From assembly GCA_963796285.1 (NCBI GenBank), contig CAWCKW010000012.1:128001-192000 (forward strand): a stretch of 64,000 nucleotides of DNA, given 5' to 3'. The translations under genes and the position numbers were made by a program. Shown piece after piece: positions 15,121-24,256 of the stretch. This DNA comes from Nitrospirota bacterium (GTDB lineage Bacteria > Nitrospirota > UBA9217). The notes below the pieces were generated by a model. It searched no databases, was not told the origin of the DNA, and saw only the letters and a program-made list of their open reading frames with translations. Numbering within the stretch: the first letter of the stretch is position 1; each line of letters opens with the position of its first letter.

Positions 15121-16626
15121 TCACGGTTTGTCTGTCGTCTGTGCTCTGTCTTCTGTCGTCTGAACTATTTTCCCCACCGCTTCCACGATCTTCCCGATCT
15201 CACCGTCATTCAGCGTCCGCGGGTCGAAGATGACCATGTCTTCCTTGATGCGCGAGATGATGTGCGGTGTGCCGGTGCGAAGGCGGAATTCGATGTCGTT
15301 CGCGCTCAACTTATCGTGCCGGATGCAGACGGTCCTGGTGGGGAAGTTGCCCATGGGCAGTGCGCCGCCGCCGCTCTGGGAGGTGTCGTCCTGGATGGTT
15401 ATCGACAATTCCTTGTTGCCGATGCCGTGAAGACCGTCAGCCATGAGCGCGGCCTTGCGCTCGATCTCGCTCAGCGGCTGGGTCAGCATCCAGAGCGTGG
15501 GGACCTCTCGGACGGCCTTCCCCATGTCAAGGTACTGTCCGAGCGTGGCATCGAGCGCGGCAAGCGTCATTTTATCGAGGCGGAGGGCACGGGCAAGGGG
15601 ATTGGACCTTATCGCCTCAAGGTGTGTTTTTTTGCCGAGGATCAGACCCGCTTGCGGCCCGCCCAATAGTTTATCGCCGCTGAAGGTGAGCACGTCCACG
15701 CCGGAATTCACGGCGTGCTGCACCGTGGGCTCGTCGCCCGCGCCGAAGGCCGCGAGGTCCACGAAGCTGCCGCTTCCCAGGTCCCACATCACGGGAAGGC
15801 CGTGCTTCCTGCCGAGTTTTGCCAGCTCCTCAGGCGAGACCTCCTTGGTGAACCCGACGATCTTGTAGTTGCTCGCGTGGACCTTGAGCAGCAGGCCCGT
15901 TTTCTCGTTGATCGCCTTTTCGTAATCCTTGAGATGGGTCTTGTTCGTGGTGCCCACTTCCCGAAGGATGGCGCCGCTCCGTTCCATCACGTCCGGCACG
16001 CGGAAGGACCCGCCGATCTCGACGAGTTCGCCGCGCGAGACGATGACCTCCTTGCCGCGGGCAAGGGTGTTCAGGCAGAGGAGCACGGCTGCCGCGTTGT
16101 TGTTCACGGCTGTGGCGGCCTCTACGCCGGTGAGACGGGTAAGGATGCCTTCGATGTGGACATGGCGTTTGCCGCGCTCGCCTGCCAAGAGGTCGTACTC
16201 AAGGTTCGAATAGCTCCTGCTGACCTCGATGACGCGCTGGATGGCCTTGTCCGACAGAATGGAGCGGCCAAGGTTGGTATGGACGATCACGCCGGTGGCG
16301 TTTATGACCGGCTTGAGGCTCGGCTCGGACAGCTCCTTGAGGATGATCTCCGCGTGATTCAGGACGCCTTCGATGGAAAACAGCGCATCATCGATAGTTC
16401 GGCCCGTTTTGGCGTCCGCGGTCTGGAGGACGGCCTTCCTCCGGGCGTCGATCGCGGTCCTGATAGCCTCGAGCACCAGTACGCGGGGGGTCGATACAAG
16501 CCATTGTTTGGTCCTGCTTTCCTTCAGCACTTCATCAACCGATGGAAGTTGTTTGAGCAGCTCCTTCATGAGCAGTACCATAACATAGCCTTTGATGAAT
16601 TTCAACAGGACATTTCCCTTTCGCAC
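15121..16626 (-). CDS. selA: L-seryl-tRNA(Sec) selenium transferase (start probably MKELLK near 16569)
   Basis: INATGVIVHTNLGRS, SRGELVEIGGSFR, FSGDKLLGGPQAG with PLP lysine. Confidence 0.97.
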   Translation of the reverse strand: MRKGNVLLKFIKGYVMVLLMKELLKQLPSVDEVLKESRTKQWLVSTPRVLVLEAIRTAIDARRKAVLQTADAKTGRTIDDALFSIEGVLNHAEIILKELSEPSLKPVINATGVIVHTNLGRSILSDKAIQRVIEVSRSYSNLEYDLLAGERGKRHVHIEGILTRLTGVEAATAVNNNAAAVLLCLNTLARGKEVIVSRGELVEIGGSFRVPDVMERSGAILREVGTTNKTHLKDYEKAINEKTGLLLKVHASNYKIVGFTKEVSPEELAKLGRKHGLPVMWDLGSGSFVDLAAFGAGDEPTVQHAVNSGVDVLTFSGDKLLGGPQAGLILGKKTHLEAIRSNPLARALRLDKMTLAALDATLGQYLDMGKAVREVPTLWMLTQPLSEIERKAALMADGLHGIGNKELSITIQDDTSQSGGGALPMGNFPTRTVCIRHDKLSANDIEFRLRTGTPHIISRIKEDMVIFDPRTLNDGEIGKIVEAVGKIVQTTEDRAQTTDKP

Positions 16627-19092: not shown

Positions 19093-20055
19093 ATGAGCCG
19101 AACCCTCACGACTTGTTTTCGAATCGCAATCGCGATGCTCGTTTTGTGGTTGGCGTCTGTGGCTCCGGGACACTCGGCCGTCGCCGCGCCGCGAGCCGTC
19201 TGGATCTGGGAGGAAGACGCCTTCCGCATGCTCGACAAGGACGAGGCGCAGCGGGAAGTAGAAACCTTCCTCGATCAGCAGCATATCTCGACGATCTATC
19301 TGTATGCCGATGAATTTAACGGCCGGAACATTCTTGTGAACGAGCCCAAGAAATACCGGAAGCTCATAGCAAGCGCCCATGCGCGAGGGTTCAAGGTATT
19401 TGCGCTTCTTGGCTCGGCGTATCTCCGCACCCAGGAGTACATCCTCCAGGAGAAGCGTCGTGCCGCCAAACGCATGTTCGGAGCTGTCCTCGACTTCAAC
19501 AGAGACACGCCGGATGCGTCCTCGCGATTCGACGGGGTCAACATTGACATAGAACCATACCTTCTCGACGACTGGGCAACCGGGCGCCCGGTGCGTGGCC
19601 GGCAGTATCTGGAGCTCTCCGCCGAATTCATGCGCATGAAGGCCGAGGCCGGATCGAGTTTGCTGGTGGGGCCGGCGATGCCGTTCTGGTACGACGGCAT
19701 CGAAGACGTCGAGTGGAAGGGGCAACGCCGGAAGCTGAACGAGTTCGTTCAAGACATCTACGACTATGTCGCGATCATGGACTACAGGAACGTTGCCGAA
19801 GGTTCTGATGGGATCGTGTCGAACGCACAGGACGAGCTCGATTACGCGGATCGGGTGAACAAGATAGTGATGATCGGCGTCGAAACTCTTCAGTCCACAC
19901 CGGCGAAGGTCACCTTCTTTGGAAAGGGCAATAACTACTTTGAAGCGCAACTGGCACTGGCGGAATCCGCGATGACACAGCATCGGTCGTTCGGAGGTTT
20001 CGTTGTCCATCACTTGAAACCCTATCGTGTTTTGGTTGAGGATAAGAAAAAGTGA
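19093..20055 (+). CDS. Secreted protein, probable glycoside-hydrolase-like TIM barrel
   Basis: Signal peptide; FDGVNIDIEPY (DxDxE-like), AIMDY. Confidence 0.65.
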   Translation: MSRTLTTCFRIAIAMLVLWLASVAPGHSAVAAPRAVWIWEEDAFRMLDKDEAQREVETFLDQQHISTIYLYADEFNGRNILVNEPKKYRKLIASAHARGFKVFALLGSAYLRTQEYILQEKRRAAKRMFGAVLDFNRDTPDASSRFDGVNIDIEPYLLDDWATGRPVRGRQYLELSAEFMRMKAEAGSSLLVGPAMPFWYDGIEDVEWKGQRRKLNEFVQDIYDYVAIMDYRNVAEGSDGIVSNAQDELDYADRVNKIVMIGVETLQSTPAKVTFFGKGNNYFEAQLALAESAMTQHRSFGGFVVHHLKPYRVLVEDKKK

Positions 20056-20190
20056 GGCCCGCATCGCATTTTCGAGAACTTATAGACATAATGGTTGACA
20101 GTTGAAAATCAAGTGACCTGCCCCTTGCAACGTGGGTTATACTTGGGAACCGGGTTCCCAAATACAGAGCCACAACCAAGGAGGCAGGTC

Positions 20191-21300
20191 ATGAAACATT
20201 CTATCATTTTTGTCGGACTAGATGTACACAAAGATTCTATTGATATCGCCCTGGCCGATGATGGCAGAAACGGCGAGATCAGGTTCTACGGCACTATCGG
20301 CGGCGATACAGCATCGCTGGACAAAGCGATTCGTAAATTCCGCCGTTCTGGCACTGAGCTTCGTTTCGTATATGAAGCAGGCCCCTGCGGGTATGAGATC
20401 TACCGGCACCTGACTGCACAAGAATTCCCCTGCGATGTTATCGCGCCTTCGATGACACCGAAGAAGAGCGGCGATCGTATCAAGACCGATCGGCGGGATG
20501 CCCTGACTCTTGCCAGACTCTACCGATCGGGCGAATTGACACCGGTTTATGTCCCCCGGGAGGACGATGAAGCTATGCGTGACCTCGTCCGAGGCCGGGG
20601 GGACGCCGTAAACGCAACCCGGAAGGCCCGGCAACGCTTGAGCGCTTTCGTTCTTCGCCATGGTTTCCGGTATTCCGGCAGAAACGCATGGAGCGCGGCT
20701 CATCTGCGGTGGCTTGCGGACATCAAGATGCCGCATCCGGCCCAGCAGATCACGCTTCAGGAGTACATCAACAGCATCGAAGAGAATTCGGAGCGTGTTG
20801 ACCGTCTGACCGATCAGATATTGAAACTGATTCCAGCATGGCGCATGGCACCAGTCGTAGCTGCCCTTCAGGCTCTTCGCGGCGTGGCAGCTATTGTCGC
20901 AACAACCATGGTAGTCGAGATCGGAGACCTCAGGCGATTTGAGAATCCCCGGCAGCTCATGGCCTATCTGGGCTTGGTGCCCTCGGAGAACTCCAGCGGC
21001 CAGACCACCAAGCGGGGCGGCATCACGAAAACGGGCAATAGCCATGCCCGACGCGCCTTGATTGAAGCGGCACAGACGTATAGCTTCCCAGCCAAGGTCA
21101 GCAGGGAGCTCCGAAAGCGCCAGGAGGGCTTGCCGCGCGAGATCAAGGATATATCCTGGAAGGCCCAGGTGCGGCTCTGCGGACGATTCCGCAAACTCAT
21201 GGCCAGAGGGAAAAACTGAAACCGGACCGTAACCGCAATCGCACGAGAGCTTTCCGGGTTCATGTGGGCCATTGCCAAGGAAATACCCATGCCAGCATAA
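20191..21300 (+). pseudogene. IS110 recombinase with an in-frame TGA at 21217-21219
   Basis: GLDVH, YEAG, KTDRRDA, GLVPSENSSG; conserved TAIARELSGFMWA continues in frame after the TGA to TAA at 21298-21300. Confidence 0.82.
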
Positions 21301-21368
21301 GGCCAGAAACAGCTTTCAAAGAACACGACGGCTATTAAGGAGAACCGCCAAGAACAACAAACAACTAT

Positions 21369-21555
21369 CCAGGATATCACCAGAGACGCGACCACGATCA
21401 GGAGAACTCTCGTGCACCCTATGGAATAAGGCTTCGCCGAACTTCCGTTTTTAGAGCGAGACAGCTCCGCGATGGAGACAAGTCATGCGGTCAAATCCGC
21501 GAATATCAGAGTGATCAATCGTCGCCGATAGGTCCCGTCTCTGGTCATGCCCTGG
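21369..21555 (+). ncRNA. Putative bridge RNA/seekRNA of the IS1111 element
   Basis: Closing stem 21369-21393 with 21531-21555; internal matches to target and circle junction. Confidence 0.65.
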
Positions 21556-21695
21556 AGCAATAACTGATATCATCCCTTTTGTACGGAGGGGCGGGGAAAC
21601 TGTTTTCTCCTTGACAACTGTCAACCATATCAGGGTAGCATCTTCGCTGCGGGGTAGTTCATTTGAAGTGTTTCGATAATGGAGGTGGTTAGTAA

Positions 21696-22100
21696 ATGAC
21701 ATGGGCAGATGAAATAAATAACAATAGAGACGATATTATGAATCAACAAGACACTATATATATAAAGGCGAAATATAAGTACTATTCCTTGTCCCCTATG
21801 GTTATACGTGTTCTTGATGAGCTCGGTGAATCATTATGGGGTAGAAACGTTTTATTTTTTAAAAAATATAAAATTAATGCTGAGTTTAATTATCCTTGTT
21901 ATTGGGACTTATTTGAAAACAAAGAGTATGAAAATCAACCTAAAAATTTATTGAGAGTATATTTTGGCGAAGATTTGACACATTTCGTCATATCGATACC
22001 AATATTATTTTCAGGCAGGAGGCCAGATGCTATATCATGTAAAGATCTCTCTGAACAAGGGCTTAAGGAAGGATTGATTGAGATGGCTAAAGCTTTTTAA
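21696..22100 (+). CDS. Hypothetical protein, very AT-rich
   Basis: RBS GGAGGT; 134-aa ORF; no family recognised. Confidence 0.55.
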   Translation: MTWADEINNNRDDIMNQQDTIYIKAKYKYYSLSPMVIRVLDELGESLWGRNVLFFKKYKINAEFNYPCYWDLFENKEYENQPKNLLRVYFGEDLTHFVISIPILFSGRRPDAISCKDLSEQGLKEGLIEMAKAF

Positions 22101-22218
22101 AAATAATCGAATAAAAAAAACAGTTAATAGAGAAACATGAGTGTGTCAAACCTACACATTTGATAAGAGAGCAAAACTCAAAGTAAAAAAAGGCGAAAAT
22201 AGGGCGAATGACTAGACA

Positions 22219-22866
22219 ATGACTCATAATCTGAAAGCGGATAAAACGCAAGCCAGGCGCTTCAGCGTGTTCAATGCGCCCAACGCACTATCCGTATACC
22301 GCATTGCGGCCGCGCCGTTAATCCTCTACAGCATATTCTCCGGCCACCGAATGCTGTTTGCCTGGCTGGTCATTATCAACCTCGTTACCGATGCCCTTGA
22401 CGGTTTCATCGCCAGGCACTGGAAGATGGAGACCTCCATTGGGGTAAAGTTCGACTCGATCGGCGACCTAACAACGGACGTCCTTACGTTGTTAGGACTG
22501 GTCGTCCTTGAACAGCCGTTTGTGAGGAGCTACATCCTTCCGATCGGCCTGCTCATCGGCTTCTACCTGGCATCCCAGGTTCTTTCGCTCCTGCGCTTCC
22601 ATCGGCTGGTCTCCCTGCACCTCTATTCAAGCAAGCTCACAAACATCTTGCTGGCCGTGTTCTTCACCGCCTATTTCCTGGTCGCCTATGTCCCGGTGCT
22701 GTTCTACACGATGATCGTCGTGGGTATCCTTGGCGCCATCGAAGAAATTGCCGTCCTCTGCTTTCTCAAGGAGCACCAGGAAAATGTGCGCGGCCTTTAC
22801 TGGGTTCTGAAAGGAATGAAGACAAAGCCTATGGACGATAGTACGGGCAGGTTGGGACGCCCATAA
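22219..22866 (+). CDS. CDP-alcohol phosphatidyltransferase
   Basis: PNALSVYR, DALDGFIAR...G..FD..GD signature. Confidence 0.9.
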   Translation: MTHNLKADKTQARRFSVFNAPNALSVYRIAAAPLILYSIFSGHRMLFAWLVIINLVTDALDGFIARHWKMETSIGVKFDSIGDLTTDVLTLLGLVVLEQPFVRSYILPIGLLIGFYLASQVLSLLRFHRLVSLHLYSSKLTNILLAVFFTAYFLVAYVPVLFYTMIVVGILGAIEEIAVLCFLKEHQENVRGLYWVLKGMKTKPMDDSTGRLGRP

Positions 22867-22880
22867 AATCATAAGATCGT

Positions 22881-22928
22881 TTCCAACCAAACGTTCCAGC
22901 TGCCAAGCAGCTAAACTCGTCGTTACTC
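22881..22928 (+). other. Compact degenerate attC-like site
   Basis: TTCCAAC-N5-GTTCCAGC-TGCCAAGCA-GCTAAAC-N5-GTT. Confidence 0.4.
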
Positions 22929-23270
22929 CGCAGACGATGAAAAATCGATCCGCTTCCTGACGGCCTCGACGCGGTCCACCCGCACCCGCGCGGTGTCGCC
23001 GATGCGATATGATGACTTCTTCTTTTCTCCCCTTAGCAAGTGCAGCTTCTCCACATAGTGGTAGTAGCCGTCGTTGAGCGACGAGACATGCACCAGCCCT
23101 TCCGCGAAGAGATCGCGGAGCTGCACGAAGAAACCGAATTGCAGCACTCCTGTGATGATGCCGTCGTACACCTCGCCCACCTTGTCCTTCATGAACTCGA
23201 GCTTCAGCATGGTGATCACGTCGCGCTCCGCCTCCATGGCGATCCGTTCACGTTTGGAGCAATGTTCCGC
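22923..23270 (-). pseudogene. Duplicated 3' end of rnr (S1 domain), within ORF 22923..23303
   Basis: 348-bp direct repeat of 24257..24604, roughly 95% identical by eye. Confidence 0.92.
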
Positions 23271-23331
23271 AATCCGTCCTGATAATAAATTGTTGAACAT
23301 CAATATTTGAAGTTATATTGACATTGCTGGA

Positions 23332-23916
23332 ATGGAGATTTATCATATCGCCATGAATAAGCTGATTGATTTCTTAATAGAGTTTCTCCAGGACCTGAAG
23401 AATATGGATAAGGTTAAGCTTGCCAGGGAGTTTAAAGAAATTGTCTATCATACGAATAAGCAGTTGTTCAGCCAGATCCCGGGTGTCAGCGCTATTGTTG
23501 GGCTTTTGGTCGGATCGTGGGTAGCCTCAACTTTTACGAACTCGCCGATCAAAGGCTTCCTGTCCTCCGTTGGTATAATGAAAGGAGGAACCCATGTGGT
23601 CAGTAACACGACCTATAGATTTATTTCGGTGCTTTTGCCACTTATTGCTACGGCTATTACCGCTTATATAGTCCAAAAGACCATGAAGATATATCGTAAT
23701 AAAAGGTTGGAAAGAAGCATGGCGCTCGTGGCGCAATTAGGGGAAGATGATCAATCTGCGTTGCGCGGCAAAATGGGTATTCTGGATAAGGCCAAAGAGG
23801 CAGGCCTCGTCTCAGAAAGCGAATATCAGACAAAGCTTGTCAATCTCTACCAATCTTATACCAGAGATAACCATTCCAAGATCGAGGAAATAATTATCAA
23901 GAAGTTTGCGAGTTAG
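23332..23916 (+). CDS. Hypothetical membrane protein with possible SHOCT-like C-terminus
   Basis: 2 TM segments; LDKAKEAGLVSESEYQ; AT-rich. Confidence 0.65.
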   Translation: MEIYHIAMNKLIDFLIEFLQDLKNMDKVKLAREFKEIVYHTNKQLFSQIPGVSAIVGLLVGSWVASTFTNSPIKGFLSSVGIMKGGTHVVSNTTYRFISVLLPLIATAITAYIVQKTMKIYRNKRLERSMALVAQLGEDDQSALRGKMGILDKAKEAGLVSESEYQTKLVNLYQSYTRDNHSKIEEIIIKKFAS

Positions 23917-24256
23917 CATCACTCGACCTGTCTCACCTGCATAATAAAAAATCCATATATTTGTCCGGGTAATATCGATATTGCTCCCGAGACGCTTTGG
24001 ACCCGATCTGTACAAGCATAAAATAATCGTTTCTCAGCTGCGAATCGACTTTGTCCGGGCTTCGCCAGGGTGAGTCAGCCGTGTTCTCTCGTACATGTTA
24101 ATAATATTACTTCATGGTATGTGAAAGCGGGAGTTTATCATCCGAAGAGGGAAGAAATGAACTGATACGATTTGATTGAACAATCGGGCGTGAATGAAAT
24201 AGATGTTGGGCTTCACATTGTTCAGACCAACCTGCCAGCTGTCCTGAAAAATCGTT

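Follow-up and report, generated by a model that had tools for sequence, protein, structure and literature searches.

Does the element at positions 20084-21633 of a Nitrospirota contig carry the RNA that guides its own recombinase, and which bases of this RNA would read which DNA? The window analyzed is the whole stretch of 64,000 nucleotides (nt) of the forward strand (GenBank assembly GCA_963796285.1, contig CAWCKW010000012.1, positions 128,001 to 192,000); all coordinates are counted from its first letter. RNA-guided IS110/IS1111 recombinases are in development as genome-editing tools, and knowledge of their mechanism comes mostly from IS621 and a few enterobacterial elements. From the letters of the window alone, an original prediction had named an IS1111-type element with inverted repeats, an AG core, a promoter formed at the circle junction, a long stem in the 3' non-coding region with guide candidates, and a TGA stop in the recombinase gene; each of these features was found where it had been placed. 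Very probably, 20084-21633 holds a single integrated element of the IS1111 type, within the IS110 family, with a guide-bearing RNA downstream of the gene. The ends of the element are formed by the following features.

20084..20085, + strand: AG core, left copy, the crossover dinucleotide, from motif-based end finding in the loci.
20086..20090, + strand: left-end extension ACATA, i.e., right-donor (RD) positions RD+1 to RD+5, conserved beside the core in relatives.
20091..20104, + strand: left subterminal inverted repeat ATGGTTGACAGTTG, the perfect 14-bp partner of 21615-21628.
21615..21628, + strand: right subterminal inverted repeat, the exact reverse complement of 20091-20104.
21629..21631, + strand: right-end 3-nt extension ATC, from the sequence and from relatives.
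21632..21633, + strand: AG core, right copy, seen in relatives and covarying with the guide.

The 14-bp pair is the sole repeat of at least 10 nt between 19900-20200 and 21300-21800. With the left AG counted, AG and ACATA make 7 nt outside the left repeat and ATC makes 3 nt outside the right repeat, and the same spacing is found in relatives. For the IS1111 family, the Introduction of Siddiquee et al. (2024, PMC11187229) gives terminal extensions of 7 bp and 3 bp and subterminal inverted repeats at least about 11-13 bp long; repeat length and extensions in the window agree with both. The non-coding DNA also has the IS1111 arrangement, with 107 nt upstream of the gene (20084-20190) versus 333 nt downstream (21301-21633). 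The assignment to IS1111 from the repeats and their 7/3 spacing is therefore upheld by the end architecture of the window and of its relatives. Between the ends lies the recombinase gene.

20191..21219, + strand: DEDD recombinase gene, 342 codons followed by a premature TGA (PF01548, PF02371, NF033542).
21217..21219, + strand: premature in-frame stop TGA; relatives have CGA or AGA.
21220..21300, + strand: leftover C-terminal coding stretch of 26 codons and TAA (21298-21300), an open frame now untranslated.

The coding frame 20191-21216 contains the two domains that mark the IS110 family, PF01548 (DEDD_Tnp_IS110, E 2.5e-16) and PF02371 (Transposase_20, E 1.4e-23), and scores 239.7 bits with the NCBIfam model NF033542 'IS110 family RNA-guided transposase' (cutoff 140). 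Beyond the TGA, the frame stays open for 26 further codons. The translation has the catalytic residues D11, E62, D100 and D103 and the SG motif G261-L-V-P-S-E-N-S-S269-G270, and its motifs align with ISCro4; GLVPSENSSG is of the form GL-P----S(t)G given for the C-terminal domain of IS1111 transposases (PMC11187229, section 6). The ISCro4 transposase (PDB 9t56) is the best solved-structure relative by sequence, although a weak one (E 3.2e-09), and the alignment shows the N-terminal GxDVxK, KTDxxDA and the C-terminal SG motifs to be shared.

Among species-representative genomes, 247 relatives were detected; the analysis kept the 80 best, the nearest of which are from Nitrospirota assemblies, with 88-96% protein identity. 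In 56 of the 81 sequences (80 loci and the window) a conserved block opens with AG followed by ACATAATGG and closes with CCATATC followed by AG, and the flanks are unrelated. L038 and L062 were excluded as mis-paired, which left 54 elements whose downstream regions comprise 43 distinct sequences. With a 56%-identical relative as its seed, a second scan gave 74 loci. In this second set the ends were called using the 7/3 rule, the repeat and the left AG, hence these features are assumed there. Three loci (L161, L109 and L022) were left out of the guide tests, and the full guide-test set has 102 unique records, of which 57 had no part in the building of the covariance model described below.

Hosts of the clade are Nitrospirota, Desulfobacterota, Rokubacteria, Rhizobiales, and E. 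coli and Klebsiella plasmids. The best named plasmid relative is annotated as 'IS110-like element ISSso6 family transposase' (L089, E. coli plasmid NZ_CP065612.1; 46.9% identity over the full length). An unannotated relative (L170) lies at 700-2170 of the K. pneumoniae plasmid CP089955.1, with 46.7% protein identity, the repeats ATGACCTTT and AAAGGTCAT and a right end reading ...CATAAG. It has an ATAAGAG loop, and its match to the RNA model is weak (38.6 bits). An assignment of L170 as ISKpn4-like was rejected on this weak RNA match and on a flank that is not of the attC type.

The AG core of the original prediction is present at both junctions. Its left copy occurs in 107 of 107 records, partly by construction, AG having been required when the ends of the second set were called. 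Its right copy tracks the core complement of the right-target guide: CT stands with AG in 47 records, TT with AA in 21 and CC with GG in two, with ten exceptions, of which four are G-U compatible. The guide's core complement thus follows the right core copy, and the variable core base travels with the right-hand sequences. Right core copies AA or GG beside a constant left AG occur throughout whole clades (e.g., L060, L065, L078, L092-L134, L029, L047, L050 and L070).

The RNA itself is predicted as a three-way junction downstream of the gene.

21363..21565, + strand: bridge/seek RNA, folded as a three-way junction in which a long stem joins two arms that hold the guides (covariance model R1).
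21369..21393, + strand: long outer stem, 5' strand (helices 1-2, 23 pairs).
21531..21555, + strand: long outer stem, 3' strand, pairing with 21369-21393.
21401..21468, + strand: target-binding arm, an internal loop between GGAG..TCTCG/CGAGA..CTCC and the inner stem GGAA/TTCC (helices 3-5).
21469..21525, + strand: donor-binding arm, with outer stem GC..GATG/CGTC..GC and inner hairpin GCGG-TCAAAT-CCGC (helices 6-8).

The downstream region folds better than 100 shuffles of it (z = -4.18), and an alignment of the 43 distinct sequences (window 21360-21565) yields the three-way junction as consensus. Double-sided changes occur at 31 of the 46 pairs of this consensus. The long stem 21369-21393/21531-21555, which the original prediction had named, is predicted for the window sequence and has compensatory changes in relatives at all of its 23 pairs. 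On the consensus, 95.9% of the paired cells can pair, versus 87.6% after shuffling and 36-46% when the partners are slid by 1-3 columns. Covariance model R1 finds the window copy at full length with 203.2 bits as the sole match in this genome. Full-length matches downstream of the gene were also obtained for 23 of the 28 loci excluded from model building, including the E. coli ISSso6-family element (94.5 bits) and the Rhizobiales clade, and for 65 of the 74 loci of the second scan; the RNA is conserved in more than 100 related loci.

A Shine-Dalgarno-like AAGGAG (21337-21342) lies about 25 nt 5' of the long stem and is kept in many diverged downstream regions; in the window no start codon comes after it. 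Long-range pairing of this AAGGAG with the CTCCTT before the -35 box was considered and rejected, since on inspection it is not kept in relatives.

In the first arm, both sides of the internal loop vary with the flanks of the element. Positions are named below as right target (RT) for the right flank and left target (LT) for the left flank, and as left donor (LD) for the element's right end.

21414..21421, + strand: right-target guide GCACC-CT-A, complementary to the top strand of RT+5 to RT+1, the core and LT-1.
21450..21454, + strand: left-target guide TTT-AG, same sense as LT-3 to LT-1 and the core, pairing with the bottom strand.

For the right-target guide, complementarity amounts to 96% at 21418 (RT+1), 94% at 21417 (RT+2), 92% at 21416 (RT+3), 78% at 21415 (RT+4), 64% at 21414 (RT+5) and 96% at 21421 (LT-1), and 21419-21420 are complementary to the core (CT with AG, TT with AA, CC with GG). 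In the left-target guide, identity amounts to 98% at 21452 (LT-1), 89% at 21451 (LT-2) and 59% at 21450 (LT-3), and 21453-21454 are identical to the core, AG. The values for RT+6 (19%) and LT-5 (23%) are at chance level. Mutual information is 0.62 to 1.53 bits for the right-target guide positions and 1.21 bits for LT-2 of the left-target guide.

Permutation of guides against flanks was performed for a first set of 47 unique records with 30 different loops (2000 permutations). The 5' side of the loop matched the reverse complement of the right flank with a mean of 5.89, versus 3.11 when permuted (maximum 3.55), and the identity run of the 3' side with the left flank had a mean of 4.38, versus 2.83 for mismatched pairs. 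In the full set, the values were 6.17 versus 3.07 (permuted) for the right flank and 4.63 versus 3.30 for the left flank, and for the 57 model-independent records 6.40 versus 3.19 and 4.60 versus 3.53, respectively. In this second test, none of 1000 permutations attained the observed target-guide match. Loop segments thus match and covary with both target strands, the property by which a bridge RNA or seekRNA is told. The order is that of IS1111 seekRNAs, for which the abstract and section 9 of PMC11187229 place the segment complementary to the top strand first; in the window RNA, too, the top-strand-complementary segment precedes the same-sense segment.

The guide matches noted originally were not significant alone, because about 0.4 matches of a 7-mer are expected by chance between a 333-nt region and a site of ~16 bp on two strands (our estimate); they become significant only by covariation across relatives. 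Of the proposed guide ACCCTAT (21416-21422), the part ACCCTA (21416-21421) lies on covarying positions and pairs with the flank TAGGGT of the window, whereas the final T (21422) belongs to a conserved, non-covarying CTATG motif. The left-target guide, overlooked in that reading, is now firmly placed at 21450-21454 by covariation with the flank.

T21451 mismatches the flanking A at LT-2, a position matched in 89% of the records. A variant copy from run X2 has A at 21451 and changed right-target bases 21414-21415. Over the RNA region it differs from the window in 4 of 152 bases, three of them at guide sites (21414 G>T, 21415 C>G and 21451 T>A). These guide-base differences are natural re-targeting among near-identical copies.

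Several loci (L034-L036 and L044, from a Geopsychrobacteraceae assembly, as well as L029, L047 and L050) lie within repeated, partly palindromic DNA with ...CAGGCTGTTGAAAAA and ATTCCCGnnnnnnCGGG. These surroundings suggest that some guide sets have targets resembling repetitive extragenic palindromes (REP).

The second arm would read the ends of the element itself.

21503..21509, + strand: left-donor guide ATATC-AG, the same sequence as the element's final 7 nt, core counted.
21480..21484, + strand: candidate right-donor guide AAGTC, antiparallel to the core G and RD+1 to RD+4 (GACAT, 20085-20089), with an A-A mismatch at RD+3.
21510..21510, + strand: handshake-type base beside the left-donor guide, tracking RT+1.

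The segment ATATCAGA (21503-21510) had been proposed as a match to the circle junction. Its first seven bases, ATATCAG (21503-21509), form the left-donor guide and covary with the right end; the eighth base, A21510, is of the handshake type instead. ATATCAG is invariant in most loci. Where the right end of the element differs, the loop compares with it as follows.

L070: right end ATATG followed by GG, loop ATATGAG, agreement 5/5.
Rhizobiales clade: right end ATAAG followed by AG or AA, loop ATAAGAG, agreement 5/5.
L170 (K. pneumoniae plasmid relative): right end ATAAG, loop ATAAGAG, agreement 5/5.
L074/L075/L077: right end ATGAG followed by AG, loop ATCAGAG, agreement 4/5.
L098: right end ATAGC, loop ATCGCAG, agreement 4/5.

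In a free-register test, the left-donor guide reached 7.14 versus 6.72 when permuted (0 of 1000 permutations). For the right donor, mutual information was calculated as a matrix (58 unique records) that sets the nine bases closing the 5' side of the second loop against RD+1 to RD+6. It contains an antiparallel diagonal: position -7 with RD+4 has 0.59 bits and is paired in 79%, position -6 has G in 6 of the 6 records with C at RD+3, and positions -5 with RD+2 and -4 with RD+1 are paired in 93% and 79%, respectively. On this basis 21480-21484 is a candidate right-donor guide; it is rated no higher because the overall free-register effect is small (3.08 versus 2.82). A search for a right-donor guide by simple complementarity to the junction (both strands, G-U allowed) returned the chance-like segments 21515-21522, with the repeat, and 21329-21337; neither is conserved or covarying, and both were rejected.

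At 21510, 36 unique records have a base other than A, and in 34 of them this base is that of RT+1; in the 47 records with A at 21510, RD+1 is A in all 47. At 21455, directly after the left-target guide, A stands with A at RD+1 in 58 records and C with C at RD+1 in one class, with three exceptions. Since they track RT+1 and RD+1, 21510 and 21455 correspond to the products of recombination, in the manner described for the handshake guides of IS621 (Hiraizumi et al. 2024, PMC11208158).

An improbable alternative, although the best of the rival explanations, is that the RNA seeks the target only, as a seekRNA in the narrow sense, the second arm being a protein-binding scaffold and the ends being read by the recombinase via the inverted repeats. 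In sections 6 and 9, Siddiquee et al. describe seekRNAs of 82-96 nt with two target matches only, and their paper suggests a differing recognition of the ends in IS1111 elements. The small right-donor signal would fit this, and ATATCAG, being invariant in most loci, could be a binding motif. Against it, bases of the right end and of the RNA change together (ATATG in L070, ATAAG in the Rhizobiales clade and in L170, G at LD-2 in L098), the covariation with the left end forms an antiparallel diagonal, and in 34 of 36 records the base that follows the motif agrees with RT+1, which a pure scaffold leaves unexplained.

Excision of the element would also create the signals for its expression.

21611..21616, + strand: -35 box TTGACA of the junction promoter, conserved in end pairs.
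20087..20092, + strand: -10 box CATAAT; the promoter would form at the circle junction only; conserved in end pairs.
20115..20122, + strand: 5' arm GACCTGCC of a stem in the 5' untranslated region (UTR), pairing with 20183-20190.
20183..20190, + strand: 3' arm GGCAGGTC of the 5'-UTR stem, overlapping the Shine-Dalgarno region and abutting the ATG.

When the ends are joined with one copy of AG, TTGACA-18-CATAAT with an 18-nt spacer results. This arrangement is conserved in 25 of 37 distinct end pairs, with close variants in the 12 others, which bears out the predicted junction promoter at the level of sequence. In the integrated copy, the promoter scan found no promoter-like site upstream of the gene; its sole match, at 21696, scores no more than shuffles give and was rejected. 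The 8-bp stem in the 5' UTR is kept via compensatory changes (RNAalifold, 21 diverse left ends) and probably limits translation of the recombinase.

From IS621, ISEc11 and the covariation in this clade, we infer the following mechanism. The DEDD/serine recombinase would recombine the two AG cores, and the element would be excised as a circle. The abutted ends would form the TTGACA-18-CATAAT promoter, which would drive the recombinase gene and the downstream three-way-junction RNA of ~200 nt. In the target arm, the right-target guide would pair with the top strand of RT+1 to RT+5, the core and LT-1, and the left-target guide with the bottom strand of LT-3 to LT-1 and the core. In the donor arm, the left-donor guide ATATCAG would pair with the bottom strand of the right end at the circle junction, and the short, interrupted right-donor guide with the top strand of the left end. 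The single handshake bases after the left guides would match the recombination product. Read on the opposite DNA strand, the core would be CT, the guides would come in the order left-right-left-right, and the layout would be that of the IS621 bridge RNA.

In IS621, as described in PMC11208158, the partner of the left guides is the bottom strand, that of the right guides the top strand, and the core is CT with a less conserved first base. This less conserved base agrees with the variable right-hand core base of the loci related to the window: on opposite-strand reading, the variable G would be the first core base of IS621, and the long and short target guides as well as the handshakes would coincide with those of IS621. 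By this analogy, IS1111-type bridge RNAs of the clade may be strand-flipped IS621-type RNAs, a proposal for which we see the chances as about even; chemistry, core (AG = CT), guide pairs and handshakes would be the same, and the recombinase-RNA unit would be inverted with respect to the crossover. If so, the handshake bases described here would be the first covariation evidence for such bases in IS1111-type elements, and the effective target code would be only ~10 bp (LT-3 to RT+5). Such a code would explain why near-identical copies (7-11 differences per 1,000-1,200 nt) retarget by one to three loop substitutions.

With IS621 (Durrant et al. 2024, PMC11208160; Hiraizumi et al. 2024, PMC11208158) the window system shares two loops that read both strands around a 2-nt core. 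Also shared are guides of unequal length on the two sides (one long, one short), handshakes matching the product, and tolerance at one core base. Different from IS621, the RNA is encoded in the right end, after the gene, its loops sit on a three-way junction closed by a 23-bp stem, the element has 14-bp subterminal repeats, and the protein is only distantly similar (8wt6, phmmer E 6.5e-07, C-terminal domain). Bridge RNAs in the right end were predicted for 93% of IS1111 elements, with donor-binding bases often in the multi-loop (Durrant et al., PMC11208160).

The IS1111 elements with a seekRNA, ISEc11, ISKpn4, ISPa11 and ISPst6, were compared by their description in the sections of Siddiquee et al. 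(2024, PMC11187229) used above. They share the subterminal repeats, the 7/3 extensions, the junction promoter, the long non-coding region 3' of the gene, the order of the RNA segments and natural re-targeting through loop-only changes. Unlike these ISEc11-type elements, intact relatives of the window copy encode 369 residues rather than 330-350; covariation here resolves donor-end guides and a handshake base, whereas those sections describe target matches only.

The ISSso6-family element L089 has the same right end, GCCATATC followed by AG, and the same ATATCAG loop as the window. Its right-target guide fits its own flank at 8 of 9 bases, and GTAAG of its left-target guide matches at 5. It differs in the phylum of its host, in the left-end extension (GCAGT) and in the target-arm sequence. 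For ISSso6, only genome surveys were found in the literature, and no description of the RNA of this clade was found in the literature on IS1111/IS110 seekRNA, bridge RNA or ISSso6; supplementary tables of the 2024 papers may list the clade. The locus adds nothing categorically new and anchors a large, well-sampled environmental clade. Added here are a guide map for the ISSso6-like clade, with three firm guides, the core and a right-donor candidate, and a covariance model. The natural covariation yields a table of re-targeting events, and the model can be used for annotating RNAs without an Rfam match.

Several points weigh against a guide-bearing IS1111-type element in this form. Related elements are not independent, and the permutation counts overstate significance. 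Of ten informative target positions, the flanks of this copy fit only seven: LT-1, LT-3, the two core bases and RT+1 to RT+3. Donor ends vary little, and support for the left-donor guide comes from four classes of variants, in two of which one base mismatches; for the right-donor guide, an internal mismatch is usual besides the small free-register effect already given. Intact relatives have more residues than the 330-350 quoted for IS1111 transposases (PMC11187229, section 6). A scan of 19500-22500 against Rfam 15 gave no match with E up to 1, and no circle junction was seen in metagenome contigs. Both the gene and the non-coding DNA are overlapped by contigs of an RNA library (run X15), which prove neither transcription nor its level and show no ends, and carry-over of DNA is possible. 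For 21363-21565 as a bridge/seek RNA, the ends, processing and recombinase binding are all putative.

The copy in the window is probably inactive, a decayed relic, because the change of CGA to TGA drops the last 26 residues, a conserved helix, the guide mismatches the flank and the genome has a single copy. The codon at the TGA site is CGA in L005-L007 and AGA in L002-L004; intact copies occur in metagenome contigs, and those of runs X1, X2 and X7 (7-19 differences per 850-1200 nt to the window) have C at 21217. A TGA where relatives and contigs have arginine codons looks like a nonsense mutation from C to T. All distinct relatives that were compared over the lost tail have it conserved as VTAIARELxGFxWAIA. 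It is very improbable that the copy is active and TGA 21217 is read through or recoded, e.g., as selenocysteine: a gene for the selenocysteine synthase SelA at 15124-16626 (- strand) and the 26 codons open beyond the TGA would permit this; against it stand the arginine codons (CGA/AGA) in relatives and in the contigs of three runs, and the presence in the genome, by search, of one element copy only despite 11 TTTTAGGGT and 12 TTATAGGGT near-cognate sites. SelA itself indicates that the organism decodes some UGA as selenocysteine, and nothing ties the TGA of the recombinase to SelA. For the genome, the element is regarded as a decayed single copy in an intergenic position, with no evident effect on neighboring genes.

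For the insertion site, a contig of run X1 has the window's left flank through 20085 and continues with GGTAGCGTCTT..., where the window's right flank reads GGTAGCATCTT.... Its joint of ...TTATAG to GGTAGC is an empty-site-like allele: it has the junction of the predicted empty site ttatAGggt, but its similarity to the window's right flank stops after ~11 nt. A crossover at TAT in place of AG, or guide matches by chance in this copy, is the least credible of the alternatives: TAT precedes the left AG, ATAT sits in the right end and a lone 7-mer match is near our chance expectation, but the TAT parse is rejected on more than 100 loci conserved from AG (left) to AG/AA/GG (right) between differing flanks, on the covariation of the right dinucleotide with the guide and on the X1 joint, and chance is contradicted by the permutation tests of guides against flanks.

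Another X1 contig, identical to 21497-21636, continues with GCACTATT; its right flank GGTGCAC is a perfect match to the right-target guide of the window copy. CTTAT to the left of AG is common to copies in X2 and X7. Further contig joints (e.g., 21282 to 21476; 21525 to 21603 or 21610) were not used, having short sides and coming probably from diverged relatives.

An assembled empty allele was sought in eight same-genus genomes: the left flank is conserved in four of them, with homology ending 10-35 nt before the element, and none could be aligned. The right flank 21634-22400 was found in none of the 40 relatives searched, and an X1 contig with the window's right flank from 21644 on has a different preceding sequence. 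The DNA to the right of the element looks strain-specific, because it is absent from these 40 relatives and differently joined in X1. The region 21634-24000 has a G+C content of 45-50%, versus 54-58% around it, and two open frames (21696-22100 and 23332-23916) without Pfam matches. It may be a strain-specific insertion or rearrangement beside the element.

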